A stretch of DNA of 64,000 bases from Isurus oxyrinchus. Taxonomy: Eukaryota. Position 1 is the first letter of the stretch, and each line of letters begins with the position of its first letter. The stretch covers positions 204,476,001 to 204,540,000 of the forward strand of contig JANJGN010000003.1 in NCBI GenBank assembly GCA_026770705.1, in the 5' to 3' direction. A program made the translations under genes and the position numbers. Below are positions 4,668 to 53,582 of this stretch, in pieces. The notes under the pieces are model-generated. The model was given only the letters and a program-made list of their open reading frames with translations. It did no database searches and was not told the DNA's origin.

Positions 4668-4868
4668 GGCCCTGAGTTTTGCTCCGTAACCGGGTGCACA
4701 GAAGCAGCTCAGTGAACATGACCTTTAAAAATGACTGCCTGGACACCAGGTCTTCGGTCTGGGGTGGGTGTGTGGGGGTCTGGGGGTGCTGGATTAGAAG
4801 TCGGGCTGGGTGACCCGGGAAGAACTGAAGAGGATGTTGGGTGCGGAGATGGGCCAGGCAGAATTAAG

Positions 4869-5080
4869 ACAAAAACAGAATTACCTGGAAAAACTCAGCA
4901 GGTCTGGCAGCATCGGCGGAGAAGAAAAGAGTTGATGTTTCGAGTCCTCAACTGAGGACTCGAAACGTCAACTCTTTTCTTCTCCGCCGATGCTGCCAGA
5001 CCTGCTGAGTTTTTCCAGGTAATTCTGTTTTTGTTTTGGATTTCCAGCATCCGCAGTTTTCTTTGTTTTTATATATATTT
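4869..5080. mobile_element. Young fold-back Penelope-end insertion (82-bp-arm hairpin)
   Basis: Arms 4869-4950 and 4953-5034 are reverse complements with 1 mismatch and a 2-nt loop; 13-bp TSD aggcagaattaag at 4856-4868 and 5081-5093. Confidence 0.9.
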
Positions 5081-5655
5081 AGGCAGAATTAAGGCCTGCC
5101 GCGGGGCTCTGGCACTGTGTCCAAAGTATAAAAATAAAGATTAAAATATGTAAATCCCTCAAGCCCCTCACTCTCCTGCACACTCCCTATGCCCCGTCCT
5201 TGCCAACCCATGTATCCCACACACTCCCATAAACTCTCATAGCTTTGATGCCAACCTATGGCCCTCCACTCACCCCCATGGTCCTTTATAGCCTCTATGC
5301 CAGCCTTGTGCCAACTTATGCCAACCCAGGCGCCCCAACTAACACCCTTTGCCCTTACCCCTACCATGCCAACTCACCTAGAGTCCATCATGAGCAGACC
5401 TCAGTTCCCATGCAGAAGTGAGGCAGAATTTTACTCCTCATGGGTGGGTGCATGCATGGACCTGATCGGACGTAAAATAGCGTCAGAAGACATTGGGCAA
5501 ACGTCCCGAGGTCATCCCGCACGCCCGCAAACTTCGGGTTGGTGGGCGCACGGGTTTCGGAGCTGCACCTGCCATCAATTAAAAGGCCACTTAAGGCCAT
5601 TGTAAATCCAAATGATCCCAATTTTATGTTGTCCGTGCCTTCTGTTACCCTGGCG

Positions 5656-6764
5656 ATGGGGGTTGTGGTCTCCGCTGGTGGCACCTCCTCTGAGGAGGAA
5701 GAGAGGGCCAGAAGGAGAGGAGGCCAGGTGTTCCAATGCAGCTTCCAGGGGAGCGACCTGTGGGAGGAGAAGCACAGACACAGGGGGCACAGGGTAGACC
5801 AAGGCGGAAGGGGCCATAGAAGATGCCACTATCCTGCTACCAGGGTTTACAGGTGGCAGCTATCTCAAGATGTCTGAGGTGCAATGCCAAAGGAGGCTCT
5901 GCCTCTCCAGGGAGACTTTGAACTCTGAAGGTTACAGCGGCCCTCAACTTCTATGCCTTCGGCTCTTTCCAGGAGTCAGTGGGTGATCTTTGTGGAGTGT
6001 CCCAATCAGCTGTCCACAGTTACGTCAAGTTGGTGACAGAAGCTCTGTTCAGGTGGGCACTTAGCGAACCAGAGGTTTTGCAGCGATTGCTGGCTTCCCC
6101 CGCATCCAGGGTGCAATAGACTGCACACATGTGGCCATCAAGGCGCCAGTGGGTCAGCCAGGTGCCTTTGTCAACAGAAAGGGCTTCCACTCCATGAACA
6201 TCCAGATAATGTGTGACCAAAGGATGCAGATTCTGCAAGTCTGTGCAAGATACCCTGCAGCTCCCATGACACTTACATCCTCAGGCACTCAAAGATGTCA
6301 AGGCTATTCAGTGCTCCAGCCTGACTGGGTGGATAGTTGCTGGGTGACAAGGGCTATCCGTTGAAAAGGTGGCTTATGACACCTCTCTGCCATCCAAAAA
6401 CAGAGGCAGAGCAGCGTTATAATAGGAGTCTTGCCTCCATAAGGGCAGTGATATAGAGGATGATAGGTCTTCTGAAGATGTGCTTCTGATGCCTGAACTG
6501 TTCAGGGGGAGCACTACAATACTCTTCAGAGTGGGTGTCACTGGTAGTGTTTGCATGCTGTGCTCTCCACAGTCTGGCACTGGCAAGGGGGGACCCACTG
6601 GAGGAAGAGGATCTTGAAGCAGCTCCACAGGCCACAGAGGATGAATCCAGCAGAGTCAGAAGAGGAGCATGGTGAGGAGAAAGCTGAGGGTGGGGAAGCA
6701 GACCTCTGTATCCTTCAGGGAGGCAGGGACGCCAGAGAGGCCTTGATCCAAAGCTCCTATAGCT
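5656..6764 (+). pseudogene. Harbinger DDE transposase (HARBI1-like), frameshifted and internally deleted
   Basis: [47 protein letters not shown]; third catalytic E codon mutated to TAG; deletions versus copy 2 near 5920 and 6060. Confidence 0.92.
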
Positions 6765-7089
6765 AGGCTGCCAAAGATCTGCTTCCACCTCATGCCAGGG
6801 CTGCCGCCTCTTTCCCAGATGTCTGAAATGAATCTTTAACTTGAACCCAAAGCCCACTCATTGCCTGTGCAATAAAGTTTAGAGCCACTCACATCCAGCA
6901 TTACATACTGGCGTACACTGCAGGTGAAGGTGAAGAATACTCAGGCCATTACGACAAAAACAAAATTTATGTCATTTTCACAATCAAAACAAATTAACAT
7001 AACCATCTCTGTTGTTTATTTCTACACCAGTAAACATAAACAAAACATTACAGAACAGAAGATCACTCATGACCAGTCCCTCTTGTGCT

Positions 7090-8967
7090 CATGATGCCTT
7101 AAATTTACATTAACGGATGCTACGTCTTGGTGTCCCCACCTCGCTGGCAGCAGCATTGGAGACAGCCTGCTGACTCTGCTGTCTTGTTGGCCTTGATGAC
7201 CTTGGCGGTCGTCCTCTGGCCAGTAGAACCTGTGCTGGCCCTGCCTGGGAAGCAGCAGCCAGTGTCACGACTGGCATCTCCCCAGTCATCGCAGCCTCAT
7301 CCGATGCCAAGGTCACTGGCAGGGAGGTGAGGAGCTGCTACCATCACCCAGAGCACCCTGAGAGGATCTGGCAGAGACAACAAGCAGCTCATGCGCCAAT
7401 GTGAGGTCGCTCTGGACCTCCCTGCTCTCCATTAATGGATGGGCACCTAGCTGGGATACTGGGTGCCTCATCCATCTCCCACAATGGCGCTGACCACCTG
7501 AGGTCATTGCCTGTGTGAGAGCTTACAGTCTGAACGTAACCTCAGGAACCTCTGATTCTGTCCCTGGAGCTGCCTCTCCATGAGAGTTGCCACTCTCTCA
7601 ATGAAGGAGGCAGTGCGCCCAGCCATGAGAGTCAACGCAGTACTTGCGCTCTGCATGGACTCCTCCACAATGGAGACCATGGTACGCAGACCCTCATGGA
7701 TCTCTGCCAGATCCTCCCACACATCCCACTGGACATCCAGCATCTGCTACCTAATGAATGACTCCAGAGAATCATCATCCGACTTCGACAAGCATCGCCC
7801 TGGTCTCCAGCAGCCTCCAACTGCCAACGCCCTGGGCACTCTCTGCCTCCAGCTGCACCTCAGGTGAGTGTGAAGTGTCCTCACCACTGTGCTCGACATT
7901 CTAGCTGAAGACCTAAAGCCCACCGAGGTGCTGGTATCTGAGCTTGTGCATGGTTCAGAGAGCAGGGGTGTGACACAGATAGAGCTGCAGCCCGGCAGTC
8001 TCCTGGCATTAGGGTGGCTCTCCGGGGAGCTGGGAACGAATACCTGTGGTGAATTTGAGGGAGAACAATGACATGTCATTAATTTAAATCCTCACACTGT
8101 CACTGTGCATGTCAGGCACCCTGGTGAGACAATGGAGATCTGCATCATGGTGCCCTCATCTTTCAATGATCAATGGGGAATCCAGTTTTAGGGCTCCCGT
8201 TAATGAAGTGACCAGACAAGAATGTTTGCACTTTCCAAAACTCTCACCTCAGTGCACTGCACTCTTACCATGGTCTGACACCTCAGCCTCTCCGTGGTCA
8301 GTTGACCGAGGTACGTGGCGCCCTCCAGCTCCGAGGCATCCTGCTCCAATCTTATCAAGATTAGGAGGTTTGGGGTCCTCTGTCTGTCCGTGACCTCTCC
8401 ATGTGTTTATGGCTCACCTTCTCCTGAAAGGATAGAGGAGCGTTGATTATTCCACTCTCTATCTGCAGTGCCATTGCAGCCTGGCCAACCCCACGTGAGG
8501 AACATCTTGCAGGGCAGGTCTGAGTTGTGACCCTCAAGCCGCAAGGCACTCAGTCCAAACGGCCAGGGCTCACCCCCTTGGCCAGCTCCGGCATCATTGC
8601 CAGTTGGCACTCAGACTCTAACACACCTGAGATCCACAGAAGGATGGCCAGCCCTTAACACTTCACCACACCGATCCATGCCAACACGTTACTCACCCTT
8701 TCTGAGTGCAGCAGGTTGTTGAAGCTTTTGCGACACTGCACCCATGTGCGCCACACAACGTCATGGCTGCCAACCTCGGCTGCCACCTGCTCCCAAGCTC
8801 TTTTTGTTAGGTGCAATGGTCTCCTCCTTCAATCTCTGGGGACGAGGGCGTCCCTCCTGGCAGCCACCTCCTCCAATAGCACCACAAGGCTCTTGTCAAA
8901 AAACTGGAGGCCAAGTGTCCATCGACCTGCTTCCTGATCTGGCGTCTCCGGCCGCAGTTGAGGCCAT
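7090..8967 (-). pseudogene. Harbinger Myb/SANT-like DNA-binding protein gene, 3 exons (about 8967-8697, 8423-8269, 8043-7090)
   Basis: TKRAWEQVAAEVGSHDVVWRTWVQCRKSFNNL trihelix/SANT motif; GTGAGT donor at 8696, ctttcag acceptor at 8424; C-terminal helical region and basic tail; frameshifts. Confidence 0.85.
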
Positions 8968-9546
8968 AGCTTCGGCCTTCAGCACGCAGAAGGTATGTTC
9001 TTCCCTGGCAGCTTTCAAAGAGCTGTCTGCGCCGTTTTTAAACCGCTCGCCATGTCACCATTGGACCCGGCGCCTGACATGGCCCTTCCCGACCATTGGG
9101 AAGACGTGTTTTACGCTGGGCTGCCTTAATTGGCTAGCCAGCATAAAATCGCGGCTGTGGGCCAATCGCAGGCGGGGGCCTGTTTCATGGCCAGTCCTGG
9201 GCCCGCCAATCATGCGCGCCCATTAAGGGTAAAATTCAGGCCTAAGTGTACCTCTCCAAAGACTCTTGCTAGCCAAACCAATCCACAAAGCTCGGAGCAG
9301 TTCTTACCTGTTCTAAGCGGCACATGCCGGGTTTCACACTCCTGTCCTGCCAAAATCCCACTTCAATGGAGGCAGCTGATGATTTAAAGGGCCAGTTGCC
9401 TCCATAAGCTACCCATTTGTGAAACACACCCCGCTACCATTCTCGCCCCTGCGAAAGTGGGAGGTGCTGTGTTCATAAGCGTGTCTTACAATTTCCGCCT
9501 TTCTTGCCATGCGGAGAGGGTCTCCGTCATGGTGAAAACCTGGACC

Positions 9547-9830: not shown

Positions 9831-10866
9831 CAAAGAGGGGAAGGGTCCTGTGACTGAGAAAGTTGCAGAGAATGTTTGCAACTGCTGTTTCGATTTAACA
9901 CCCGGCCCTCAGTTCCTGTTAAACCAGCCAAGTGTTTACTTATTTCTTTAGCTGAAAAATATTCAGGTGGTCCAGCACAAAGGACAGTCCCCGGCCTTTT
10001 CCTCCTGCCAATCCTATTCTGCCCAGCACAAATACCAGTGTGTCATTTTGACATTGAAAAACTCACAAAGCCCAGCAACATGTTCAAACAGACCTTATTC
10101 CTCCAGCAAAGCTTATTTCCACCATTGCACACTGTTCTGGAAAAATGAACCATGGCATGCTTAAAAAAAAATCAAAGTTAATGTTGCCTTAGATAGATCT
10201 CCAAGCGTGAAGCAAAACCATTCAAAATCTGAAAATCAGCATTACTGCATCAGGTATCCATTACCACAGGGAATATAGTTTACAGCAGTTGTTTGGCTTG
10301 GAAATTGTAAAAATAAAAATCACACTTTGCTGCCTGTCTTTGGTGTATCATTTATGTATTTTTCCTGCAAAATATGACAGCACTGCTTGCTATGTAGGGA
10401 GAATGTAATTCCCACTGCACACTGTCTGAAAGAAGCAAATCTTTCCAACCATTTCAGGGCTATGAGAAAAGAATTGGGTAGCTATTTCAAAGAGCCGGCA
10501 GAGACAGATAGGGCCAAATGGCCTCCTTCTTGACACCTGAGGTTAATTGCACATCAAGCACAATCAACGTGCGTTCACATGGGAGGGTTTTCATTTATAT
10601 TAAGGTTAGAATAGTACATAGAACTTATAACATGGGTACTGGCCATTCTACCCAGCCTGTCCATGTTGGCATCTAACCTTCGCACAAACAAATTATTCTC
10701 ATCACATTGACACACCCTGTCCCAAATCTTTTTAATTCCTTTTTCTCCATCCACCTATCCAATCTAATCTTGAATGTTAACCTGGTTTTTGCCTCAGCTA
10801 TTAACCCAGGAATTCACTGTTCTGGCCGTGATCGTCACTGGATGTTTGGGATGGGAAATTGTTACA

Positions 10867-11210
10867 AACAAAAAAACTGCGGATGCTGGAAATCCAAAAC
10901 AAAAACAGAATTACCTGGAAAAACTCAGCAGGCCACTAAGTGAAACAGACAATGGGAAATGCACTTTGTATGTGAATAATTTGAAGTGTGACAATCACAG
11001 GCTAGCTGTAAAAATTTTCATTATGTAGATGGTTATTTGAAAGCTCAATTCCTTTACAATTATTTTTTGTTTGAATGGTTTAATACATTACCAAATATCT
11101 AAACCGCAGAGTTCTGTTGAAGGGTCATGAGGACTCAAAACGTCAACTCTTTTCTTCTCCGCCAATGCTGCCAGACCTGCTGAGTTTTTCCAGGTAATTC
11201 TGTTTTGGTT
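10867..11210. mobile_element. Fold-back Penelope-end insertion containing captured inverted genomic DNA
   Basis: 15-bp TSD tgggaaattgttaca at 10852-10866 and 11211-11225; inverted Penelope ends flank 181 bp matching the reverse complement of 11541-11721. Confidence 0.9.
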
Positions 11211-11721
11211 TGGGAAATTGTTACATTTACCAACATGACCAGCTTCACCTTGATGAAAAAAATGATCTGCATCACATGCACCGATTTGAATGGTGTCTTC
11301 CAAGTAGCCGTACACACCAGTGACTGTTTTTTTTCAGTTCTTGTACAGGATTTATCAAAAATAACATCCACAGGGACACATTTAAATAAGAGTCAAAGGC
11401 TTATCATTTAATAAAACTTTCTGCAGCCCTGGTCAACATTTACTGCAATTAGCACTACAAGCTGATATAGTCCTATTTGGAGGCAGCACAAAAAGGATTT
11501 GCAGCAAATTTACATTAAAATGAAGTAAAAGCAATGTTTCCTGCAGTTTAGATATTTGGTAATGTATTAAACCATTCAAATAAAAAATAATTGTAAAGGA
11601 ATTGAGCTTTCAAATAACCATCTACATAATGAAAATTTTTACAGCTAGCCTGTGATTGTCACACTTCAAATTATTCACATACAAAGTGCATTTCCCATTG
11701 TCTGTTTCACTTAGTGGCCTG
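10929..11721. repeat. 181-bp inverted duplication (10929-11109 vs 11541-11721)
   Basis: Near-identical reverse complements; the ORF track shows the same peptide (RPLSETDNGKCTLYVNNLKC...) on both strands. Confidence 0.95.
11108..11150 (+). ncRNA. Minimal type I hammerhead ribozyme-like motif (degenerate)
   Basis: Stem I agagtt/aactct, CUGUUGA, stem II gggtc/gactc, (G>A)AAAC, palindromic ACGU, GUC triplet. Confidence 0.6.
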
Positions 11722-11852
11722 TGAAATATCACATTAATAAAAAAAAGTAACAAAACACTTAAATGAATAATACTGATTTCCTTAAATATTACAGTAGCTA
11801 GGAAAAACACCAGTAAAGAATAAACAAAGATCGCAGAACTACCTAATAATAA

Positions 11853-14147: not shown

Positions 14148-14357
14148 TGTAATGACTTGATGTACCAGGCAGTTTTTTACTTGAAACAGATAACTTTATT
14201 ACAGAGATCTTTTCAGAAGCTACATACTTGAACCAGGTCCATGACTAAAAAAGCATTTCCCCCCCCACCAGATTACCTGCACTTAGGTCTCATTCATCAG
14301 AACAATCATATGACCCCTAATAGGCAGCAGGAAAAGGCTATACCTTCAATCACTACA
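14148..14357 (-). repeat. 3' LTR
   Basis: tgtaatgact...cactaca, direct repeat of 19166-19363; minus-strand polypurine tract taaaggagcaggaaa adjacent at 14358-14372. Confidence 0.95.
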
Positions 14358-14439
14358 TTTCCTGCTCCTTTAGTTTTTTGTTACACTTCCTATTTACAAA
14401 GAACACTTTAATCCACAACATATACATATGTACAGGTCA

Positions 14440-17400
14440 GGTGATTAAAGATCACGCCTCTGAGGTGTTTTTCTTATTCGGTTAGAGCGGTGTAACTCTA
14501 CCACTTGAGGTTCTCCCACTGGATCAGCATGATCAGGAACTGCAACATCAGGTACATTCTTAAAAAGTGGCAGTTCAGAGTTAGACAACTCTGCAGAGAC
14601 GTGTCTGGTATGTCTATTCTAGATCAATCTGTCACCTCAGGGATTAATAGTTTCCCGTTAATCACAGGCGGAATAGCTAGTTGTTGGAATGTCTATTCCT
14701 AAAATACTCCACATGTTTTTGAAAAATTCTGTCTTCCACTTCCACCTGGAAGGACAAAGGACCAGTTTCTGAGACAATTGTACCAGGAACACAACAAGGT
14801 CCACTTTCAAAATTCCACACTAAAATTGTATCTCCTGCAGTAAGACTTCGAGCTTTGCTATGAATATCATGGTTCCATTTTTGATTACTCTGATTCTTCT
14901 CTACCTTCCCCTCTAAGTTTGGAAACACCTGACTTAACCTTGTTTGTAAGTGGCATTTCATCAATAATTCAAATGGCATTGAGCCCATAGTTGAATGAGT
15001 TGAATGTAGTCATACGATAATTGAGAACAAAGTGGGAAAGTTGAGTTTTTAGAGTACCTTTGGACAACCTCTTCATTCCTGAATTGAAAGTTTACACTGC
15101 TCTTTCAGCTAACCCATTTGATGAGGGATGATATGGTGCTGTTTTAATGGGCAACATTTTCCTCCCATCGGGGTGGGGATGTGCGGGAGCGGGTGCGGGG
15201 GGTGGACGGGTTCCTAGTCGGCGCCCCCCAGTTGGGGGGCGCACCATCATTTTACATGGGCAGGCCAATTAAGGCCTGTCCAGCATGACATCCACCAGGA
15301 AGCATTATGTGCTCCCTGTGTAGGTGGAGGGGATTCCCTGAGCCGGGAGTGTGTGCATGCCGACGAAAGAACGCACAGATCTCCCTGAGTCAAAGTGCTG
15401 CCTCAGGGATATTGGCTCAGGTTTGAAACATTAAATAAAGATGAGAAAGAAAGTTACTGACATGTCCCCTCATGTGCCACTGTCACATGAGGTGGGATAT
15501 GTCAATTTCTTTTATTTAGAGATTTTATACAAATTTTAATAACCTCATGAAACTCATCCCGCCCATGGATGAGGTTTCATGTTTCTTCAGAAGCCCGCCT
15601 GGGCTCCCGGCCTACCCGCCAACCTTAAGGTCGGACAGGCAGGTCCATTAATCATGTTAATTACTTTTTTAATGGCCTCAATAGGCCATTGACAGTTCTG
15701 AAAATCTAAATGATGTGGGGTGATGTTGGGACGCACACCCGACGTATCCCCGTGTCATCTTACGCGTCGGCGAGTGGGCCCCGCCTCCCCCTCCCCCCAC
15801 GCCAACTGGAAGATAGAGCCCAATATGTTTGATTCCAAATAAACGCATGAATCTCTGAAATTTTGTACCATTACCTAAAACAATGACTTCCAGTAGGCCA
15901 TGTATACTAAAACATTGATGCAGCTTTTCAATAGTTGCACTCGATGTCGGTGATCTAACTTCATACATATCCATCCACTTAGAATGTGAATCTATAATCA
16001 ATAAAAACACCGGTACCTAAGAACAGACCTACATAATCAATATGTAGTCTAACCCAAGATCGACCAGGCCACTCCCACAGATGCAGTGGAGCTGAAACAG
16101 GCAATATCTGTTGTTGCTGACACTGGAGGCAGAGTTTGACCATGCTTTCAATATCACTGTCTATGCCTGGCCACCAGACATAGCTTCGCGCAAGCATTTT
16201 CATCTTCAATATGCCTGGATGTGCACTGTGAATCTCTGTCAAGAGTGGTTCTCTTCCTTGCGAAGGGACAACGACTCTTGATCCCCACAACAAGATTCCA
16301 TCTTGACAACTTAACTCTGCTTTTCAAGCACAGAATGATCTCATCTCTTCAAGAATGATCTCATCTCTTCAGACACTGGTGAATTTGACTACTCTTGCAA
16401 TACAAGGTCTCGGACTTATGACAAGATTGTATCTCTGTCCATCCAATTCCTCATTTGCTTCCCACACACAGGCAAAGAGTCCAAGAAATTCAGTACAAGC
16501 ACAACTTCTCTTGGCACTGGAGCATGTACAATGCTATCTGGTAACAGGAGACAACTGAGTGCATCCACATTTGCAATATGCAAGCCAGGATGGTTCTTAA
16601 CGGTTTACTCATATATAGTATCAAAGCCCAGCGTGTAATTCTTGCTGAGGCTATTGGCAGAATGGTTTTTTCCTCACTGAATAAACCCATTAATGGTTTA
16701 TGGTCCGACACTATGGTGAAATGTTGTCTATGCAGATACTGGTGGAATTTCTTAACTCCAAATATTACTGATAAACCTTTCTTTTCTAGTTGTGAATAAC
16801 CCTTCTCAGCTGCAGAGAGGGTTTGGGAGACATAGCCGATTAGCCTTTCAGAACCATCTTCCACCCTGTGTGAGTACACAGCTCCCACACCATAAGGAGA
16901 TGCATATGTTAATATTAATATTAATTCTTTTGATGAGTCATAATATACCAGTACACATGATGGATGTAATAGCTTCTTAACTTTCACAAAGGCTGCTTCT
17001 TGTTGTGAATTCCATGGCCAATGTTGATTCTTCTTTAATAACAAGTGTAAAGGTGCCAACATGTTGGCAAGTTTGATAAGAAACGGCTATAATAATTGAT
17101 CATGCCCAAAAAGGACAAGTTCAGTTGCACTGGATGGAGAGGGTGCCTTTTTGGATGCTGTAGCCTTCTACTCTACTGGATGCAACCCCATGTCATCCAC
17201 TCGGTGACCCAGGTAAGTAACTTCTGGCACTTGGAATGTGAATTTCTCTTTCTTTAATCATACACCAGCTGCTAAGAATCTTCTTAAAACCTCTTCCAGA
17301 TTGGCCAAATGCTTGGCTTCCATTGACCCTGCGATCAGAACATCATCTAGGTATACTGCTACTCGGGGATGTCTGAGCAAAAGATTTCCCATGGTTCTTT

Positions 17401-18200
17401 GGAAGATTGCACATACAGATGACACAGGCTGTTGTACATGTTGATGGTTACATACCTCTAAGTGTGCTATCCAGCTCTATCTGTTGGTATGCATGGCTCA
17501 TGTCCAGTTTGGTATAGGATTTGCCTCCAGCTAGCTTTACGTACAAGTCGTCTATCCTCAGGATAGGATATTTATCTGGTTTAGCTGCCTTGTTCATGGT
17601 CATTTTGTAGCCCCCACAAACACGTATAGTTTGGTTGGGTTTTAATACAGGGACTATGGGCACTGCCCATTCTAAAAATTGGACTGGCTGGATGATGCCT
17701 AGTTTCTCTAAACAGCACAATTCTACATCCGCCTTCTCCTTTAGGGCATAAGACACAGGTCTGGCCTTAAAGAAATGGTGTGTCACCTGAGAATCTATAT
17801 ATATTTTTGCTTGTAAGCCATTTAACTTTCTCAATTAATCACAAAATACACTGTTGTATTTCCTTAGCTGCTCAGGAACTCCTTCTGTTCTCACTTGAAA
17901 TATTTCAAACCAGTTGAATTTGATTTTTTGTAACCATTCTCGGCCCAGAAGGTCCTTCACCTGTCACAATGATCACTGGAAGCTAGGCTGTCTGTTGCCT
18001 ATAGAACACAGGTACTGTTGCGACACCCTTTACCTTTGTTGATTCTCCAGTGGGTGCCTTCAATTGAGCTGTGGTTCACTCCAGATTCAGTGGCTGGGTA
18101 CATTCATTTAGATATTTAAATGTGTGGTCTCCCACCACTGTGGTTGAGGCTCCCAAATCTACCTCATTGAATTGTGATGGTTATTTGTTCAGATTTTACT
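14440..18200 (-). pseudogene. Gypsy pol (protease, RT, RNase H, integrase)
   Basis: EVDLGASTTV; WAVPIVPVLKP, YPILRIDDL, TKLDMSHAYQQ, VYLDDV; ASPYGVGAV, YSQLEKKGL, SDHKPL; HSAHPG...CLQCQ, RLHIDY, IIDSHSKW, APYHPSSNGLAERAV; many frameshifts. Confidence 0.95.
15149..15821. mobile_element. Harbinger-derived MITE inserted in the Gypsy integrase
   Basis: gggcaacattttc / gaagatagagccc; perfect AAT TSD; splits GIKHI|KTAPYHP; arms similar to Harbinger copy 1/2 ends. Confidence 0.9.
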
Positions 18201-18279
18201 GCTTTGACATTTTACAGGCAGCTTCAGGTTCTGTTATATCATTCACTTCAATCATTTTGGTCTGCTGCCTTATGGGCTG

Positions 18280-19063
18280 TCTCAATTTTGCCCTGCATTG
18301 CTTTATTAAGTGCCTTTTCTTATTGCAGTAATGGCATTCTGCCTCCTTGAATCTGCAGGTGTCTGGTCTGTGGTTATCTCCACGTCTATAACATTAACGT
18401 CAGAGTCGCTGCTGAAATGCTTCCACTAGGCCTTTCCATTTTTCAAGCAGCAGACTGCCTCTCACTTTGCTGCTGTGTCTCTGGTTTTTCTGCGACGCCT
18501 GGCAGTAGGTTCTCGCCCCACCTGAAGAACAGTACCATGTTCCACATTCTGTAAAGCCTGTGAGTCCCTTGCAGCACTTTTCATGACTAGAGTTATTTCC
18601 ATGGTGCGCTTCAAATCGATGTTGACTTCTGCAAGTAAACAGAGCTGAATGGCACCATTGTGAATTCCACAAACTAATCGGTCCCGCAACATACCATTGT
18701 GTGTGTCTCTGAAGTCGCAATGCTCAATCAACTGCTTTACCTTAACTACATAGGTTGTGATGGACTCTTCCGGGGCCTTTACTCTGGAGTTAAACTTAAC
18801 TCTCTGCATTACAGATAGCTTTGGCTGAAAATATGTCTTTGTGAGGTCTATCAATTTATTTCAAGATTCAGAATTGGGCACTTTCGGGACCATCAGACTG
18901 CAATGAGGTTATATGTCTTGCTACCACAGACTCTCAAAAGAATTGCTTTCTGCTTCTTCACTGCAATTTTGTTCGCCATGAAATAAAAACCATGGTGCTT
19001 TAAAGACTGGCTCCAGTCTTCCATAGGCGCATCATAAGAGTCAATTCTGCCAAAGAGTGGCAT
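18280..19063 (-). pseudogene. Gypsy gag
   Basis: MPLFGRIDSYD; LRDRLVCGI; double zinc knuckle CY..GDNH...C / CHYCNKKRHLIKQC. Confidence 0.9.
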
Positions 19064-19145
19064 GATTGGTGAGTATACTTTTCTTTTTTTCTTAAGAACT
19101 CTTGTACTCACATTCGGTGCAGTGCAGAGGTGCAATGTCGGAGCT

Positions 19146-19163
19146 ATCCCATCTTCGCCACCA
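19146..19163 (-). promoter_or_regulatory. Primer binding site (tRNA-Leu-like)
   Basis: TGGTGGCGAAGATGGGAT begins 2 nt inside the 5' LTR boundary. Confidence 0.65.
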
Positions 19164-19165
19164 AA

Positions 19166-19363
19166 TGTAATGACTTTACGTACGGACGGGTTTCCACTTG
19201 AAACAGATAACTTTATTACAGAGAGCTCTTTCAGAAGCTACATGCTTGAACCAGGTCCACAACTAGAAAAGCACAGCCCCCCCTGCACTTAGGGCTTATT
19301 CACCAGAACAATCACGTTACCCCTAATAGGCAGTAGGAAAAGACTATACCTTCAATCACTACA
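19166..19363 (-). repeat. 5' LTR
   Basis: Direct repeat of 14148-14357 with substitutions and an indel; AATAAA on the minus strand. Confidence 0.95.
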
Positions 19364-19497: not shown

Positions 19498-20734
19498 GAC
19501 CAGAATTTTCCAGTCCCATTGGCATCGGGCATCATGGCAATTGGGGGGGACAATATGGCAAGAAGGCCAAAAATCAGTTTCGCGAAAATAGTTTGTGATC
19601 ATCCGCTCCACCCGTCAATCGCGGGACCTGTTTCCCACCACCACACAATGGGAGTCAAATTTCAATATTTTAGCATCTCATTATAAACCCAGAATCATCC
19701 CCCCATGCTGGATGATCAGGGCACATCAGCATGCAGTCATGCCAACGTGTTTCACCACAGCACATAAGTAATGTGCACCTGGAGAGCTGCACTTTGTTCA
19801 GGACTTTGAGATTTGTTTGCCTACCTTGCTTCGGGCAGCACTCGCAGTTATCAGCGCCAGGCTTCGCAGACAGCACCACATCACTTTTTGGGAGGCTCAC
19901 AGGCAGATCTCTACCTACCAGACCAGCTGTAAGGGGGAGGGGGTGGCTTTTCAACGTCTGCAGGGCTAGGTCCTGCTTGGGGAATGTGGCAAAGTGGCCT
20001 TAGGCAAGGGAAGAGGCTGCAGGGCAAGGGCTGCACTGTGATGGAGGGTATCTCAGGGTGTGCGGGGGTTGTTCTGTGCAAGTGGCCTCAGATGGTGAGG
20101 ACTGAGGAGGCAGTGTCCAAAGGAGGTGAGGCCAGATGGAGAGGTGAGGCTTCGTGTGAGAAATGGTGGTGATGTCTCTTCGACTAGCAGTGAGTGAGAT
20201 GCCAGTGAATGTATGATGGGCTTGAGTGTGTGAGTTTAGAGTGATGAGATGGTTTCCATATCCTGGCCACACAGATGAGATCATTCATCCTCAACTGCAT
20301 TGGATGGCCAACCTCTTCTGTGCAGTGTTGGCACTGACCACCCCTGCCATCGCCCACCAAGCCAGAGTTGTAATGAGACCAGAGCGTGGGTGGAGGACAT
20401 CACAGCAGGCCTACATGACGTCCAAAAGCTCTCAAGGCCTGCAGTTTTGTTGCCTTTCGAGGCCCTGTCTTCTTTGCTGCAGTCCTGAGCTGGAAGCACT
20501 GAGCGCAGCTGTACTTCAAATGTGGTGCCTGGCCGGATGAAGCAGCGAGGTGATGGTGTCACAGGCGAATCAGAGCCCACCCGCCATTTAAATGGTGTGT
20601 TTCTCAGGAATGCATAACTAACGCGTCAGGTTTGGGATGATACGGCGTGAAAAGCTGCCCTTGTAGCCAGTGGGTGAAATGTTGTTTTACTCGCCTGCTA
20701 CTGCACTTAGTGCAAATCTGGGGTGATTCTGCCC
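19498..20734 (-). mobile_element. 1.2-kb non-autonomous Harbinger retaining Myb exon 1 (copy A)
   Basis: Termini gaccagaattttcc / ggtgattctgccc; degenerate W...VVSANTAQKR.AIQC..RMNDLI on minus; colinear with 42210-43448. Confidence 0.8.
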
Positions 20735-21003
20735 AGGGATTCTATTCTTCGTGCCTCATAAAATGGTGCACTTGAATTTCTAACCCATTCTGTGCAATGA
20801 AAACGTTTTTACAATCAGCTCCAGTACATTATAGTCACTACAGTATTTAGGAATAGCATTTCAGCCATTAAGTCCATCATGCCTGTGATTCCCAGTTTGA
20901 AAGGGCTATTGATTTAGTCCCATTCCTCTGGTCTTACTTCATAACCTTGTGATGGTTGGACAATCTTGCTTATTTAACAGTGTGTGCATAGTAGGGATTA
21001 TAT

Positions 21004-22362: not shown

Positions 22363-22765
22363 TAAACCTCACATTGCATTGAATAATGCTCAGTATTTAA
22401 TATAATAGTTACCTTTATATGGTATCTTCCTTTGTCGAATCTTCACAAAGTACTTCATAAAATGATTCATAGAAAGACTTGCATTTAAAATGTGCCTTTC
22501 ATGACGTCCAAACATTCCAAAGTGGTTCACAGCCAATGAAATACTTTTGAAGTGTAGCTACTATTATAATGTAGGAAACACGGTAACCTAGTTGCACATA
22601 GCAAAAGTCCAACAAACCGCAATCAGATAATGACCAGATTATCTGTTTTTAGGTGTTTGTTAAGTCATTAATATTCACCAGGTCAACAAGGAGAATTCAC
22701 CTGTTCTCCCTCAAATAATGTCATGGGATCATTTATGCTTACCTGAAATGGCAGCTATAGTCTTG

Positions 22766-23871: not shown

Positions 23872-23880
23872 TTGGTTTCA

Positions 23881-23975
23881 GTCGAAGGGTCATGAGGACT
23901 CGAAACGTCAACTCTTTTCTTCTCCGCCGATGCTGCCAGACCTGCTGAGTTTTTCCAGGTAATTCTGTTTTTGTT
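23881..23975 (+). mobile_element. Young single-arm Penelope-end insertion
   Basis: Essentially identical to 4953-5034; 9-bp TSD ttggtttca at 23872-23880 and 23976-23984. Confidence 0.88.
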
Positions 23976-26982: not shown

Positions 26983-27299
26983 GCTGTCAAAGATCTGCTT
27001 CCATCTCATGCCAGGGCTGCCGCCTCCATGCTGGATGTCTGAAAGGAATCTTTCATTTGAACCCAAATTCCACTCAGTGCCTGTGCAATAAAGTTTAAAG
27101 CCACTCATGTCCAGCATTACATAATGGCATACCCTGCACCAAATGAGTAAAAGGGTGAAACATATTAAGACCCTTATGACAAAAACAGAATTAATCTCAT
27201 TTTAAGAATCCAAAAAAACTAACATAACCTTCTCTGGTCTTTATTCCCAGACCAGTAAACATAAACAAAACATTACACAACAGAATATCCCTCTTGTGC

Positions 27300-33690: not shown

Positions 33691-33892
33691 CACTGTAATT
33701 TTGGTGGAACTTTGGCTTTAGAGGATAGTGTAAAGGGGGTGATGGTGAATCAGTGAACGGTTTTACATATCTCATGATTTTTGTCCCCATTATGCAATGC
33801 CATGGGAGATGACCCAGTATTACATTAAAAGGCTTACTTCTATTATCCACATCCTATAGCATCCTATAGCTATTTCAAAGTAAAACAGTGGC

Positions 33893-34254
33893 ATTCTCCT
33901 GATATCCTGGCTAATACTTATCCATCAACCAACACCCTAAAGAATATCTGACCATTATCATATTGCCATTTGTAGGATCTTTCTGTGCACAAGCTGGCTG
34001 CCATGTCACTGACGTTGCAACAGTAATTTCATTGGCTATGACAAAAGCAAAATACTGTGGATGTTGGAAATGCTCAGCAGGTCTGGCACCATCTTTGGAG
34101 GGAAAACCGAGGGTTATGGTTTTGAGTCAAACATGACTCTTATTGGATCCAAAATGTTTTCTCTGTTTATCTCTTCACCGGCTGTGAAGCATTTTGGAAC
34201 GTCCTGAGGTTTCAAAAGGTGCCATGTAAATGCAAGTTATTTTTCTTTCTTTCA
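33893..34254 (+). mobile_element. Deu-domain SINE 3' half, interrupted at about 34041-34177 by an old Penelope-end insertion
   Basis: catcaaccaacacc...tcattggct|gtgaagcattttgg...taaatgcaagt(tctt)n; degenerate TSD ggctatga/ggctgtga. Confidence 0.7.
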
Positions 34255-35029: not shown

Positions 35030-35235
35030 AACATTCCAAAATTCATCTATCAACCAACACCACCAAAAATCAATAATCTGGTCATTTAATTCCTTTGCTG
35101 TTTGTGGGACTTTGCTGTGAATAAATTAATAGCTGTGCATGCTACAATATGACAGTGGCTACAATTCCAAAGTAATTGACAGTAATTTGAGATCTGAGGA
35201 TTTAATAAGGTATCATATTAGTGAAAGTTCTTTCT
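35030..35235 (+). mobile_element. Deu-domain SINE fragment
   Basis: caaccaacaccacc...tctggtcatt...gctgtttgtgggac..tgctgtg. Confidence 0.6.
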
Positions 35236-42209: not shown

Positions 42210-43448
42210 GCTGGGATTTTCTGCGTCCGCTGGTATCAAGAGTGTTACGTGGCATGAGCAGACAATATGGAGCAATCAGTTTCTCAACAGCATGAAACCA
42301 GTTTGCAGTATTTCTGGACATCGGGGCCCTCATTGTAATATGTCTGCATTATTATTAGGCCAGCCCAATGGAATTGTTCCCCCCGCTGCCTCGCTGGATC
42401 GTCCACTCAGGTCAGCAAGAATCACAACAGCACATAAGCGACATGCACCTGGCAGTTTGCACTTTGCTTGGAGCTTCAAGGTTTGTTTGCCTACTTTGCT
42501 TCAGTCAGCACTCGCAGTCATCAGCACCAGGCTTCACAGACAGCACCTCATCACTTTTAGGGGGGCTTTCTGTAGGTCTCTGCCAGATCAACCAAATGTG
42601 GGTGGCTTTTCAATGGCTGCAGGGCAAGGTTTTGCTTGGCAAAGGGGGGGAAGAGGCCTTAGGCAAGAGAAGAGGCTGCAGGGTGAGGGCTGTACTGGGG
42701 AAGGAGGGTAACCCAGGGTGTGTATGGGGCACATGTTGATCTGTGCAAATGGCCTCAAGATGGTGAGGGCTGAGGAGGCAGTCTCCAGAGGAGATGAGGC
42801 CAGAAGGAGATGTGAGGGTGTATGTGAGAGTGAGTGGTGATGCCCCTTGAGCTGGCAGTGAGTGAGATGCCAGTGGATGTGTGATGGGCTTGTGGGTGTG
42901 TGGATTTAGAATGATGAGATATTTGCCATGCCCTGCTGCACAGATGAGGTGGTTCATCCTCGATCTGCATTGGATGGCTATCTTCTTGCATGCAGCACTG
43001 GCACTGATCACCACTGCCACCACCTCCTAAGCCTGGTTGGTCACGCCACTGCCCATCCTGCAGCCAGAGTGGGGGTAGAGGACATCATGGTGGGCCTCCA
43101 CACCATCCAAAAGCCATTCCAGTGACACGTCACTAAACCTGGAGGCTGCAGTCTTTTTGCCTCTCGTGGACAACTTCCCTGCAGTAGTCATGGGCTGGAA
43201 GCACTGAGATGTGTGCACACAGCTGGACTTTAAATATAGTGCCCAGCATGATGAAGCAGCAAGGTGATGGTGTAGTGGACGAATGAGAGCCTACCTGCCA
43301 TTGAAATGGTGTGTTTCCCGGGAATGCATAACTAATGCGGTGGGTTTGGGATGATACAATGTGAAAACCTGCCTTTGCGGCTGGTGGCTAAAACGTTGTT
43401 TTACCTGCCTGCTACTGTACTTAGTGTAAATCTGGGATGTTTCCACCC
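42210..43448 (-). mobile_element. 1.2-kb non-autonomous Harbinger retaining Myb exon 1 (copy B)
   Basis: RGKKTAASRFSDVSLEWLLDGVEAHHDVLYP; ACKKIAIQCRSRMNHLI; termini gctgggattttc / gatgtttccaccc. Confidence 0.82.
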
Positions 43449-43529
43449 AGAGGCCGAGTTTCCATAATATGTCTGATCCAAAAAGATCTGTCTACCCTCT
43501 GGGCTGGATATAAAAATCCCATGACACCA

Positions 43530-43760
43530 TTTTCAAGAAGAAGAGGAGAGACATCCCTGATGTGCTGCTCAATATTTATCCCTCAATCAACATCACAAAA
43601 ACAGGTTATTTGGTTAATATTATATTGCTGTTTGTAGGAATTTGCTGTGTGCAAATTGGCTGTCATGTTTCCTATGTTATAAACGTAGTATATTTCATTG
43701 GCTGTAAAGTGCTTTGAGATGTTCTGAAGTGACAAAAGGCACTATATAAATGCGAGTCCC
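43530..43760 (+). mobile_element. Deu-domain SINE fragment
   Basis: caatatttatccctcaatcaacatcac...tcattggctgtaaagtgctttg...tatataaatgc. Confidence 0.7.
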
Positions 43761-48619: not shown

Positions 48620-49752
48620 GCAATGAAGGAGGCGAAGGAGGGAGAGGCAATGCGGCGTGCAACTCAACCAGGAGATCCTGCCTGATGGCAAAGGTGAAGG
48701 CGGAACCAAAGCAAGAATAAGAGGGTCAGAGAAGAGACCCAGACAACAGACGAATCACTAGATCAAGGGCATACCAAAGAAGACTCTCCTATTTATAAAT
48801 GAGTGAGAGACAATGCGCTCGTCCCGAGCTATGGTAGATCACAAATGCCACATTCTTCGTGAAGACCTGACACCCTGTGGGGTTGGAGGGTATCCCCTGC
48901 CAGTGGTTTTAAAGATGACCACCGCACTCAATTTATTTGCCTGTGGGTATTTCCAAGGATCAATAGGGGACCTCTGTGGCATCTTGCACACATAGATGCA
49001 GAAAGGAGATCACAGATGCCCTTTACAGCAAGGCACATCACTATGTGAGATTTACTCTGGACTAAGGTAGCCAGGCTGTGAGATTCACTGTCTTCGCAGC
49101 TATCTCAGGCTTCCCAAGAGTGCAGGGTGCAATCGATTGCACCCATGTGGCTTTAAGGGCTCCATGACAGCAGGCCCATGTTTATAAACTACAAAGGCTA
49201 CCATTCCATCAATGTACAATGGGTGTGTGATCATCAGAAGCATATCATGCATGTTTGTGTCATTTACCCTTGGAGTTGCCACAACTCCTATATTCTGAGT
49301 CACTCCCAGGTGCCCGAGATTTTCAAAGGGTCTGAATGTCTGCAGGGATGGTTGCTTGGGGATGAGGGGTGCCCACTGAAATGCTGGCTGATGACACCGG
49401 TACATCGGCCTCAGAGTCGTTCCGAGGAAAGGTACAACACTGCTCACAGCTCCACATGCTCCCTAATAAAACAGACCATTGGGATTCTGAAGATGCCTGG
49501 AGCACTCAGGTGGCGCACTACAATACACTGTTGCTAGGTTTCATACAGCATCGGTATGTTGTGCCCTTCACAACCTGGCGCTGCAAAGGGGTGATCCTTT
49601 GCCAGAGGGTGAAATGGAAGAAAGAGGATGAAGATCAGGAGGCCCAGGAATCTCAAGAAGGTGATGATGGTCAGTTTGAAGGCAATGACACCATGGAGGA
49701 AGCAAGACATGGGAGACGTGCCCGTGATATTTTAATCACTGCCAGATTCTAG
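48620..49752 (+). pseudogene. Harbinger transposase
   Basis: LKMTTALNLFACGYFQ, ISGFPRVQGAIDCTHV, NYKGYHSINVQ, LLGDEGCPL, IKQTIGILK, acidic tail, RDILITARF*. Confidence 0.92.
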
Positions 49753-50394: not shown

Positions 50395-52128
50395 AAATTG
50401 AATTCAGAATTTCTTTATTTTCCTAACCTTACTGCTACGCCTGGGTGCAGCCCTGACATCCACAGCAGAGGTGGAGGCTGCCTGCTGACCGCTACATCCT
50501 TATGTCTGTGATGACCTTGGTGTATGTGCTGTGGTGGCCAGGCCTTGGTCTGATAAGGATCTCCTGCTCAGGGGCAGATGCACCCTCCTTGGCCTGAGCA
50601 GCTGGGGTGGATGAGGTCACAGGCAGAGGGGAATCAGAATGGCACAACACCATTGGAGTGTCCTGAGAGGAGGTCCAGAGGGGGTGCGGTTCCAGCTGAC
50701 GTCCATCCTCCTTGTGGGTGCCCGAGAGCTCCTCCTTGACTCCTCGAGGAGATGGTCAAGCTGCCTCATCCACCTCTCACCTATACCTGGATGGTGCCCA
50801 GCAGGGTATGTGGTCATGGAGTCCAGGCCCGAGCGCAATCCAGCTCAATCTGCTGGATCAAGGTGTCAATGGCGGTTGCCAACTTTTCCATGGCGACCTC
50901 GAGGCGCCGGCATGTCAGAGCCACAACATCAGACAGAACACAAATGAACTCCTCCATCCTTTGCTCTCGTCTGTTGAGTTACTGCTGAATCTCTGCCTAA
51001 TGTTCCGCCACAGTCTGTTTTGTCTCCAGTGTTGTGTTGGCAGCTGCTCGTCAGAGGCTCAACATCTGACTCGGATTGAACAGGGGGCTGATCTCCAGCA
51101 GCTGTCCGAGTGCCGGAGGCCTAGTCTGCCCCTGCCTCCAACTGCTGCAGGGATGTGTCAGTGATGTGTTCTTCAGTAGGTGAGCCCAAGTCTAATCTAT
51201 AACTATGCCCCACCAAGGTGTGTGTCTCTGCGCTGGTGGAGGGTGTGGGTGCGTGCAGTGATGGTTCTTTCTCAGCTTCCTCTTTGGACATGGTCTGGGT
51301 GCTGGGACTTTTGACTGGCATCTTTGTGGGCCTCAATCTGCCTAAAAGATAGAGAATAGAGTTTCAGTTAATAAGCATGAGGAAGACAATTCTGCATGTC
51401 ACTCACTGTGATTGTCAGGATGTGATGAACTGAAGGAGGTGTGATCCATACAAGATTGCTGGGACAGTCCAACCTCCCCTTCCCCACTGGGGTGATCCCT
51501 GTCCTCCCCAGTGATCTCAGTGGCATCCTCCTCGAATTGTGTGAGGCCAATGATGTCGGCCACCCCCAGTATGCAATCTGTTCCGTCTGTTGTGGGCAAG
51601 CTTGCCCTGGATGAAGACACAAGAAAGGCATGTGCTGAGAAGGGGTAGAGCAGAGTTTAGGAAAGATGCATGCCCCCTGTGTGTGGTGAGTCCTCCCAAG
51701 AAGGGGCTGAGGGTGGAGTGTCCACAGCATAATCGATTGGATAGTGGTGATGTGAAAGTTTCCATGAGACAATCAGTGGTGATATGTGTCTCCTGCTAAT
51801 GGTTGTGTGAGATCCCTGAAGAGAGTAGCCCTTTAAGTGCATGATGCCATGGTGAGAGTTTCATATTGCAGGGGGAGCTGAAGGATGACTTACCCTGGCA
51901 GAGTGGATGAGATCATTCATCCTCTTCCTGCACTGGACAGCCTTCCGGGCACAGTTGCCAGTGCTGTGCCCTGCGATGGTCTCCCAAGCCAGAGAGGTGA
52001 GGCTGCCTGTACTTCCTGAACCCATCCCTAGGATACAGGACATCCCTGTGCGCCTGCACTTTGATCAAGTCCTTGGGAACCTGATGGGTGAAGCAGGGTG
52101 CAACCTTCTTCTTCTGGCTTGACAACAT
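50395..52128 (-). pseudogene. Harbinger Myb/SANT gene, 3 exons
   Basis: MLSSQKKKVAPCF; AWETIA...RKAVQCRKRMNDLIHSAR then GTAAG donor (51893); acceptors near 51606 and 51341; exon 2 GKLAHNRRNRLHTGGG. Confidence 0.85.
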
Positions 52129-52477
52129 CTCTGTGCATGTCCTGGAGACAGGTGGGGTGGAGAAAGTGAGATGACTGTGTTTAGGTGGTGTTTAAATATG
52201 TCAGCCGGATTTTTGACCCCACCAGCTAATGGTGGACGGACCAATCAGCTCCTGACCCACCGGGTGATTCAGTCCAATACTTGCCTGTGCATAATTAGTT
52301 TCCAAGCGTGGAATCGGGCGCGGGTTCCCACCATTCCATGCAGCGGAGTAGATGCCGCCAATCCCGCCCACCACTGCACTTAGTCTCAAAAATGGAAAAT
52401 TCCACTCAATGTCTTTGAAGTGATGCACTTTAGTCTCACCCAGATGGGTAGGTACTTTATAATATTACACATACAAT

Positions 52478-52661
52478 AATATAAAAGCAAAATACTGCAG
52501 ATGTTGGAAATCTGAAATCAAAACAGGGAATGCTGGAAAGACTCAGCAGATCTGGCAGCAACTGTGCTCTGAAGAGGTCAAATGGACTTAAAACGTTAAC
52601 TCTGTTTCTCTCTCCACAGATGTTGCCAGACCTATTGAGTTTTTCCAGAATTTCCTGTTTT
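52478..52661. mobile_element. Older fold-back Penelope-end insertion with a CUGAAGA hammerhead relic
   Basis: Inverted arms; 15-bp TSD tattacacata(c/t)aat at 52463-52477 and 52662-52676. Confidence 0.85.
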
Positions 52662-53582
52662 TATTACACATATAATGTCTTGTCTTGGGATTCAAATTGG
52701 AAAATGATCTTGGAATGCTGCATTTTCTTTGTTTATCCTCTAGGATAATGATTCCTTAACTTATTAAATCCTTCCTGCATGACCATATTCCTAGATCCTT
52801 GGATTTCCAATGGGCTTTTATGAAAAACCCAGATCTTACAGGAAATGTAGCGGTAATATAAATAGACTATCAAAAACATCTAACATCATACTGTTCCTTA
52901 ATCTATAATACTAATATTCCATTTTAAGCCTTGTTCTTCAGGCTACCCATGACAATGCTCAGTCTTTAGTTCAACTTGTGTCACTTAGATATTGAGGGCC
53001 ATGGATCTTAGTGCACTCAGAGCTGCCATGTGCTATGTGGCAACTGGTCTAGAGCTTGTTTCCTTCTCTCTTCAACTCTTATAGAATCCTAAGTTCCTCC
53101 CCTCCCCCCTTCAGCTGAGAGAGGTTTTTTTTCTGTTGATCTAAAACAAGATATAACTTTATTACCTACAGTATGGGCATCATTGCATCATTATAATTTC
53201 CAGTGCTTTGTTGAATAATATCACCAGCAATGCAGAATTCACTCTTAGTTCCCACAAATTAAAAACTCCCAAGCCTAATGCTTCAAGTGCATACATATCA
53301 CTCATTTAGTGACAATTGTATTGGAACAGTAGATGATATTTTCCATTTTCCAGTGGACAGATTGCATAACATTGGGCTGCATAACTACTGGCCAATAAAG
53401 ACCTCTGAAAAGGGCAAAAGGCACTTGTCAGAACTCTTTAAGTCCAAAAGACTAAAGAAATGCAGAGATAACAGAAACATTATTTAACTTTTAAATAAAG
53501 TATTGAAACTGAAGGAAATATCTATTCTCAATGAAATGCACCTATTTCAATTTGTGATACATCGAATAATACTACTGAAAGA

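Follow-up and report, generated by a model that had tools for sequence, protein, structure and literature searches.

Insertions of Penelope-like elements (PLEs) have been described as carrying a tail of 30–40 bp at one end together with an inverted, 5'-truncated copy of the element, and the origin of these inverted repeats and of the one-sided tail was stated to be unresolved (Craig 2021, PMC8557442). There is a single in vitro PLE system, PAc (Frangieh 2024, PMC11167929), which nicks and extends both strands, using two adjacent internal start sites on unprocessed RNA. These sites lie approximately 111–118 nt into the ORF, close to the 5' end of the mRNA, and initiation is independent of target homology. 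The hammerheads of PLEs mostly occur as single motifs; dual motifs, located 100–700 bp apart on opposite strands, were ascribed to truncated PLEs (PMC4209133). A class of short, inverted PLE stubs that bear minimal hammerheads has already been described, and the insertions presented here are ordinary debris of this known kind. Their junctions give clues to the route by which PLEs insert.

The window analysed is a stretch of 64,000 nt from the shark Isurus oxyrinchus. Five small insertions that an earlier note had placed at 4869, 10867, 23881, about 34041, and 52478 (loci A to E) were all recovered, with 212, 344, 95, 138, and 184 bp, respectively, between the TSDs. Probably the RT/GIY-YIG protein of a PLE produced each of these very short insertions independently, usually with both nicked ends priming. 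The clean TSDs of 9–15 bp reported for four loci were found as exact repeats at 4869, 10867, 23881, and 52478; that of locus D (34034–34041/34180–34187) is 8 bp long with one mismatch. Over the five loci, TSD length varies (13, 15, 9, 8, and 11–15 bp, the last being either 11 bp exact or 15 bp with one mismatch). As a control, 1488 pairs of 40-nt windows were drawn at random, with 230 nt between the members of a pair, and scored for exact matches; 16 pairs had a match of at least 9 nt, one of at least 11 nt, and none of at least 13 nt. By its length alone, the 9-bp TSD of 23881 is only moderately significant, yet its position is exact at the repeat borders. The 8-bp TSD at 34041 is backed by two empty paralogous sites: minus the insert and one TSD copy, the site is gapless at this point against both of the two paralogous host repeats tested.

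The proposals that at least two age classes exist and that the young copies are nearly identical were borne out by the arm identities. The arms of 4869 and 23881 are 99–100 % identical and those of 10867 are 95–100 % identical to both, while the copies at 34041, 52478, and 4603 show 56–77 % identity to this young group. The last of these (locus F) is a sixth, old copy that had been overlooked, a single decayed arm at approximately 4603–4668. Six copies per 64 kb suggest that the family is very abundant. Two inverted arms, said to be the usual build, are present as long pairs at three of the five loci, next to a weak second arm at 34041 and a single arm at 23881. The description of the insertions as built only from the terminal repeat fails at 10867, where 181 of the 344 bp duplicate the flank of the locus in inverted orientation.

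Locus A (4856–5093, both strands) is young and is bordered by TSDs at 4856–4868 and 5081–5093. Its short-ended antisense arm (4869–4950) is separated by a 2-nt spacer from a sense arm with a tail (4953–5080). Both arms break off within loop II of the hammerhead, at a point 17 nt upstream of the cleavage site that is also the midpoint of a 6-bp palindrome; this is the sole perfect 6-bp palindrome within the 95-nt arm of locus C. Locus A is nested in a Harbinger-type DNA transposon (about 4669–9242); an empty site was sought in the second Harbinger copy and was not found, as that part does not align. Locus F (4603–4668, minus strand) adjoins the Harbinger-type terminus at 4669. Its arm ends before reaching the hammerhead, and neither a TSD nor a continuation was seen around 4603–4668.

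Locus B (10852–11225, both strands; TSDs 10852–10866/11211–11225) is young with CpG decay and consists of an antisense arm with a tail (10867–10932), captured flank (10929–11109), and a short-ended sense arm (11109–11210). The captured 181 nt are the reverse complement of 11541–11721, located 316–496 nt downstream of the right TSD, with 179 of the 181 positions identical, and the junction with the arm shows a 4-nt microhomology. Since the spacer was copied from its own flank, locus B was assembled on site. The youngest-looking copy, locus C (23872–23984, plus strand; TSDs 23872–23880/23976–23984), has intact CpGs and a single short-ended sense arm (23881–23975) that starts at core G5 and whose 3' end shares 4 nt of microhomology with the TSD. 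Loci B and C differ at 4 of 95 sites, three of them CpG, and share U6.

The two remaining loci are old. Locus D (34034–34187, minus strand), residing in a SINE-like host repeat, has an antisense arm with a tail (about 34042–34150), from which one duplicated unit has been deleted internally, and a weak 29-nt sense arm (34151–34179; blastn E about 0.04), which ends short of any start site. In locus E (52463–52676, both strands; TSDs 52463–52477/52662–52676), an antisense arm with a tail (52478–52566) is followed by a short-ended sense arm (52567–52661).

Of the minimal hammerhead that the insertions were said to carry, the architecture could be confirmed and the intact motif could not, as no copy has an intact core. 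The only full-length motif is that of locus B (11109–11149, plus strand), which has the minimal type-I architecture of the consensus in Fig. S3 of PMC4209133: stem I (11109–11113/11145–11149), stem II (11122–11126/11132–11136), an extra nucleotide (11121), and the palindromic CG. Its core (11114–11120) has a U at position 6, its GAAA box (11137–11140) has lost G12 by CpG decay, and the cleavage site follows 11144. Locus A holds only the 3' half of the motif, and the hammerheads of loci D and E have decayed; that of E has kept A6, lacks G12, and misses 1–2 nt after the first core box. A hammerhead descriptor with exact cores gave no matches on either strand of the window, and allowing one mismatch per core box gave one match, at 11114; 3 of 200 dinucleotide shuffles had any match to this relaxed descriptor. 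Rfam yielded no matches at the gathering score and, at E values up to 10, 17 matches, none of them a hammerhead; the top ones were hairpin families on the palindrome of locus A. Core position 6 is covered by two of the young copies (B and C), and both carry A6U. The young source element appears to have had this core; its ribozyme was probably weak or dead, which did not prevent insertion.

The arms have two fixed outer ends, each of which closes one of two diverged copies of a unit of approximately 29 nt. The arms are inverted, head to head, at A, B, and E and, weakly, at D. In all three long two-armed loci (A, B, and E), one arm is tailed and the other is short-ended, a mixture with a chance probability of 1/8 in a sample of six loci; the two ends are offset by about 46, 32, and 38–42 nt, respectively. 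The short end also occurs alone at locus C and thus represents a genuine start site rather than the accidental terminus of a fold-back. At C and E, the short ends match the TSD over 4 nt of exact microhomology, whereas at A and B the match is partial. At all five loci, the longest arm passes through the cleavage site, and the template RNA had therefore not been self-cleaved. Five of the seven independent arms stop inside the hammerhead, in a 20-nt window 17–36 nt upstream of the cleavage site; none extends beyond stem I, and two (three with locus F) stop downstream of the ribozyme. A post hoc simulation with these seven arms, leaving out locus F and the short arm of D, gave P values of 0.013, 0.006, and 0.0002 for the clustering under three truncation means. 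This clustering departs from the expectation for random truncation and equally suits a short dedicated template.

The head-to-head arms, the tail at one end, the variable TSDs, the minimal hammerhead architecture, and the unique junctions all fit truncation products of a Penelope-like element, one of the two options left by the earlier note. The process would start with nicks staggered by 8–15 nt, as recorded in the TSDs. By analogy with Anolis PAc, each nicked 3' end would then prime cDNA synthesis within the RNA of the element, with two U-rich sites approximately 30–45 nt apart serving as alternative starts, one for the short end and one for the tail end; the short ends with their target microhomology are a counterpoint to this analogy. 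Synthesis on the uncleaved template would usually stop in the 5' half of the hammerhead, where the 5' ends cluster, possibly as a consequence of a structural stall or of the RNA reaching its 5' end. The two cDNAs may finally be joined via short annealing. From the products, joining could have taken place through the loop II palindrome at locus A, by plain end-joining at locus E, and, at locus B, via a snap-back in which 181 nt of neighbouring DNA were copied, while locus C would have been primed from one end only. These products are dead copies and do not make up a replicating family.

The coding partner of the family was sought in the window. Pfam analysis of all 360 stop-to-stop ORFs of at least 62 aa revealed neither a GIY-YIG nor a Penelope-type domain; the matches comprised Harbinger DDE_Tnp_4 (three times), a Gypsy-type RT/RNaseH/integrase set, and a few weak ones below the cut-off. 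No long PLE copy, around which direct pLTRs or a partial tandem arrangement might be expected, lies in the window. Two translations of the repeat, taken as possible N-termini of the ORF, found nothing in protein searches, which is weak evidence. In the frame starting at a conserved ATG just 3' of the ribozyme, 8 of 21 changed codons are synonymous (4/18 and 3/18 in the other frames); this is suggestive only, and a stop interrupts the frame in the young copies. A 21-nt pattern had one match in prokaryotic genomes (L001), which was taken as chance in view of its unrelated flanks. The literature search found nothing linking the 12-nt repeat motif with shark, nothing on A6U in the catalytic core of hammerheads, and no published description of this repeat family, which may well be catalogued in Repbase or Dfam; the supplement of Craig 2021 had no match to two repeat motifs or three shark terms.

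An inverted arm could also arise if a singly primed cDNA snapped back and copied itself. Snap-back is documented for R2 insertions, self-priming has been proposed for PLE palindromes, the two arms of locus A share their terminal base and form a near-perfect palindrome, and the second arm of locus D is short. However, the arms at B and E are unequal and their inner ends are not mirrored, and fold-back would not lead one to expect what all three loci with long arms show, namely a second arm that terminates at the same short site that locus C uses by itself. As a general account fold-back is improbable, although it may explain D and possibly A. Alternatively, the same enzyme, again with double priming, might have copied a short RNA of approximately 140–150 nt that begins a little 5' of the hammerhead and extends to the tail. 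This RNA could be the 5' leader of the PLE mRNA, on which priming at the 5'-proximal start sites would give a run-off cDNA similar to a strong stop, or it could be transcribed from a solo repeat that serves as a non-autonomous source in the manner of a SINE. The 20-nt window of arm ends, the lack of arms past stem I, the PAc starts near the mRNA 5' end, and an A6U source, as relaxed selection on a non-autonomous template would allow, are in line with this. On the other hand, the ends are scattered over 20 nt instead of falling on one base, the arms that stop downstream of the ribozyme do not fit, a Pol III A box and a tRNA are both absent, and the clustering rests on the small post hoc sample given above; a short template is considered unlikely.

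The other option of the earlier note, a retrozyme-like family replicating via self-cleaved circular RNA, has in its favour that the insertions are short, noncoding, and hammerhead-bearing, that young copies are 99–100 % alike, and that animal retrozymes are related to PLE pLTRs and are present in one chondrichthyan genome. Two consecutive complete hammerheads on the same strand, in head-to-tail units of 150–450 bp, are not present at these loci; as the arms lie on opposite strands, no transcript holds two sense ribozymes. The 15 TRF rows contain no tandem array of this unit, no core is intact, and the cDNAs cross the cleavage site. A check for shared junctions, run on the five loci of the window, found none, all five central junctions being different, and locus B was built on site. 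With unique junctions, no head-to-tail repeats, and no two ribozymes on the same strand, the retrozyme reading fails and is hardly credible. An origin outside the PLEs (the end of a twin-primed non-LTR retroelement, a MITE, or a SINE resembling a hammerhead by chance) is very improbable. It would account for the lack of a partner ORF among those of the window, similar junctions are produced by L1 when twin priming is combined with internal duplication and templated insertions, and the strand opposite the ribozyme contains a sequence that resembles a B box, with one mismatch; yet the relaxed hammerhead match is rare in shuffles, and one-sided tails are described as unique to PLEs (Frangieh 2024, PMC11167929). 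Of the candidates tried, a MITE was ruled out by the variable TSDs (8–15 bp) and the unequal or single arms, a tRNA-derived SINE by an A box in 0 of 10 strand scans, a B-box-like sequence with one mismatch in 3 of 10, and no tRNA, and a solo LTR by ends that are not TG...CA and by the variable TSDs.

The insertions of this family are tiny and fully readable and could be used to distinguish double priming from self-priming by counting. If A6U were to hold for the young subfamily genome-wide, it would be natural evidence that mobility needs no ribozyme cleavage. A more specific source is conceivable, though doubtful: a template of approximately 150 nt from hammerhead to tail, with its core disabled by A6U and its stems kept, that is Penelope-primed from both nicks at the duplicated U-rich sites. 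Such a source would amount to a SINE-like element that depends on a PLE, or to a strong-stop product, in which the hammerhead fold serves as a structural boundary instead of a catalyst, and the junctions would be a natural record of the double priming behind the inverted repeats and tails of PLEs.

The EN+ PLEs (Penelope/Poseidon and Neptune; Arkhipova 2013, PMC3846280; Craig 2021, PMC8557442) share with these loci a head-to-head inverted terminal copy, a palindromic inverted junction, a 30- to 40-bp tail at one end, TSDs (reported as 8–10 bp), and the capture of unrelated DNA between solo pLTRs flanked by TSDs. They differ in that only approximately 70–140 nt of the terminus are present here, neither an ORF nor a direct pLTR having been seen, and in that the captured DNA was traced to the immediate flank, inverted. 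As in the PLE hammerheads of PMC4209133, the motif is of type I, without helix III, with an extra nucleotide between 9 and 10.1, G10.1-C11.1, and a palindromic 15.2–16.2. The young copies have U6, whereas all 56 rows of Fig. S3 in that paper have A, which the descriptor demanded for most; none of the rows is chondrichthyan. PAc, a Poseidon of Anolis carolinensis studied in vitro (Frangieh 2024, PMC11167929), is alike in the nicking and extension of both strands, an adjacent pair of internal starts that defines the tail, an uncleaved RNA template, and a ribozyme activity that is dispensable for insertion. Its start is an AC-rich stem-loop without target homology, whereas here each of the two starts is a U-tract at the end of a duplicated 29-nt unit, and microhomology with the target is seen at the short ends. 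Non-LTR retrozymes (Cervera 2020, PMC7229834; Li 2026, bioRxiv 10.64898/2026.07.22.740005) are likewise short, noncoding, and related to PLE termini but consist of head-to-tail tandem units, each with a complete ribozyme, and form circular RNA. Twin priming and templated insertions of L1 and the snap-back of R2 (bioRxiv 10.1101/2024.08.27.596794; PMC11371274) resemble the present loci in the microhomology-primed second nick, the joining of two cDNAs, and the copying of nearby genomic DNA (<250 bp). The enzyme class is different, however, and the second priming site is fixed here and not spurious; for L1, the template is usually no more than 15 bp from the site, whereas that of locus B is 316–496 nt away.

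The feature is real: all five short insertions of the earlier note (loci A to E) were found where it had placed them. Between their target-site duplications (TSDs), they measure 212 bp (A, 4869), 344 bp (B, 10867), 95 bp (C, 23881), 138 bp (D, 34042) and 184 bp (E, 52478). The four TSDs of 9 to 15 bp were confirmed as exact repeats of 13, 15 and 9 bp at A, B and C and of 11 bp at E (15 bp with one mismatch); among random window pairs used as a control, exact common strings of at least 9 nt occurred in 16 of 1488 and of at least 13 nt in 0 of 1488. The 8-bp TSD of D, which carries one mismatch, is real since the reconstructed empty site aligns across the insertion point with both of the two paralogous copies tested. 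The repeat hosting D is one of four copies that we take to be SINE-like (22476-22760, 33890-34240, 35061-35177 and 43516-43760). Blastn and profile searches of the window yielded one extra, decayed copy (F, around 4603-4668) and no further copies of substance. At least two age classes are present, as had been proposed: A and C are 99-100 % identical, B and C disagree at 4 of 95 sites (three at CpG), and D, E and F share 56-77 % identity with this young group.

Locus A is inserted within, and is therefore younger than, the first of three related Harbinger/PIF-type DNA transposon remnants with DDE_Tnp_4 matches (4669-9242, around 25300-29471 and around 48900-49500), the first two of which are 78 % identical over 3.4 kb. 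The minus strand carries a decayed LTR retrotransposon of Gypsy type (14148-19363), which retains fragments of RT, RNase H and an integrase zinc finger; its LTR-like direct repeats (14148-14357 and 19166-19363), with TG...CA ends, are 82 % identical. The window also contains a repeat family of about 1 kb without a Pfam match (19752-20736, 42422-43450 and 63558-63927; 72-74 % identity), decayed LINE-like 3' fragments in both orientations, presumably CR1/L2 (11916-12633, 21979-22280 and 30347-30835), and an assembly gap of 177 N (32896-33072).

The arms are copies of what is probably the terminal repeat of a Penelope-like element (PLE). Read on the ribozyme strand, they face each other head-to-head, and their 3' ends adjoin the TSDs. 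Their outer ends occupy two positions: the short end and, some 32-46 nt further, the tail end. Loci A, B and E combine both, C has a short end only, and D has a tail end. The preceding unit recurs in diverged form as the tail, with a 29-nt period in A and E; each unit ends in a U-tract, and D is without one unit. Microhomology between short end and TSD is exact over 4 nt at C and E and partial at A and B. The inner (5', hammerhead-side) ends lie upstream of the cleavage site by 17 nt (both arms of A), 36 nt (B), 29 nt (C), about 34 nt (D, decayed) and about 31 nt (E), or downstream by about 32 nt (B) and 18 nt (E). They do not reflect alignment drop-off, each being delimited by the opposite arm, by the TSD or by captured DNA, and none among these arms falls at the cleavage site or beyond stem I. 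In a post hoc simulation of geometric truncation, in which A was entered once, F and the short arm of D were omitted and values of +31 and +16 were used for the two downstream ends, a 20-nt span at any position contained five of seven ends with P values of 0.013, 0.006 and 0.0002, depending on the mean.

The minimal hammerhead ascribed to the insertions stood as an architecture but not as an intact ribozyme. An exact descriptor gave no match within the window, and an intact core is absent from every copy; with one mismatch allowed per core box, a single match was obtained at 11114 (in shuffles, 3 of 200). As in the PLE consensus outlined by Cervera and de la Pena (PMC4209133), the latter motif has a 5-bp stem I, an extra nucleotide after A9, a 5-bp stem II opening with G-C, no helix III and a palindromic CG. 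Core base G12 was lost in B by CpG decay and kept in A and C. Both young copies that cover core position 6 have U there (B, 11117; C, 23882). In C, this call is based on three bases adjoining the TSD, where a two-base match would arise by chance about once in 16; E, an old locus, retains A6. A6 occupies 56 of 56 rows of the published PLE alignment, made with a search that favoured it (PMC4209133), and a natural A6C variant and changes at position 6 are described with low activity (Perreault 2011). We infer that the young source ribozyme was weak or dead. In the open-access papers searched, neither an A6U hammerhead nor this repeat family was found described. Antisense to the hammerhead GAAA box and stem II, the arms of A and C show a Pol III B-box pattern with one mismatch (4935-4945), alongside which no A box was found; this match is probably a coincidence.

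The 360 ORFs of the window contained no PLE ORF in a Pfam search, which returned three Harbinger transposase fragments and the Gypsy-type polyprotein remnant. Searches with translations of the repeat gave no matches, and one prokaryotic DNA match was dismissed as chance. The probable assignment of the loci to PLEs is based on non-coding signatures. Just 3' of the ribozyme, a conserved ATG opens a short frame (4984-5012 in A, with equivalents in D, E and F), which terminates at an AG/GT donor-like site in the young copies but stays open through the tail in the left arm of E; by analogy with other PLE terminal repeats, it could be an ORF start. Searches with translations of this frame were empty.

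Locus B contradicts the notion that the insertions are built only from the terminal repeat. Its segment 10929-11109 matches 11541-11721 in reverse complement at 179 of 181 positions, and this source stretch lies 316-496 nt beyond the right TSD, on its downstream side; B was therefore assembled on site and is no whole copy of a master. The segment and the left arm have 4 nt in common at their junction. By the simplest route, one cDNA end would have folded back to the strand flanking it, used this as template for 181 nt and then annealed to the other cDNA through these 4 nt, although the segment may instead have been copied from a local transcript or stem from a repair event shortly after insertion. 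Locally templated inserts are known for L1, mostly far closer to the site than the source in B, and unrelated DNA caught between TSD-flanked solo terminal repeats is reported in Arkhipova 2013 (PMC3846280).

What the copies show directly is that the target was nicked in a staggered manner, that the outer ends fall at two fixed positions, that synthesis ran through the cleavage site, that every junction is unique and that DNA was captured locally. The copies are probably independent, very short PLE-type insertions that arose by double priming: both nicked ends would prime reverse transcription, at two U-rich sites, cDNA synthesis would end inside the hammerhead, and repair would join the cDNAs. 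The centre of A is a 2-nt insertion in TCATGA, the sole perfect 6-bp palindrome of the C arm; nowhere else can two cDNAs of the same polarity anneal. Pure fold-back, with precedents in Arkhipova 2013 (PMC3846280) and R2 snap-back, may apply to D and perhaps to A, but it does not explain why the arms differ in length at B and E or why the short end recurs. The chief competing explanation is a dedicated short template, by which the end clustering is better accounted for than by random truncation; that such a template used the disabled ribozyme as its boundary is considered unlikely. For these copies, the retrozyme-like reading of the earlier note fails, as retrozymes are characterized as tandem repeats carrying complete ribozymes (Cervera 2020, PMC7229834; Li 2026, 10.64898/2026.07.22.740005) and the present copies show neither feature.

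Inverted truncated copies and a one-ended tail are already mentioned for PLEs (Craig 2021, PMC8557442; Goubert guide), and minimal hammerheads occurring mostly singly, or as opposite-strand pairs 100-700 bp apart, were attributed to truncated PLEs (Cervera 2014, PMC4209133). For the double-primed reading, an enzymatic precedent is provided by the system of Frangieh 2024 (PMC11167929), in which nicks are made in both strands and extended, reverse transcription begins at two neighbouring internal sites that set the tail, and the RNA serving as substrate is uncleaved; that system initiates without target homology, unlike the short ends described here.
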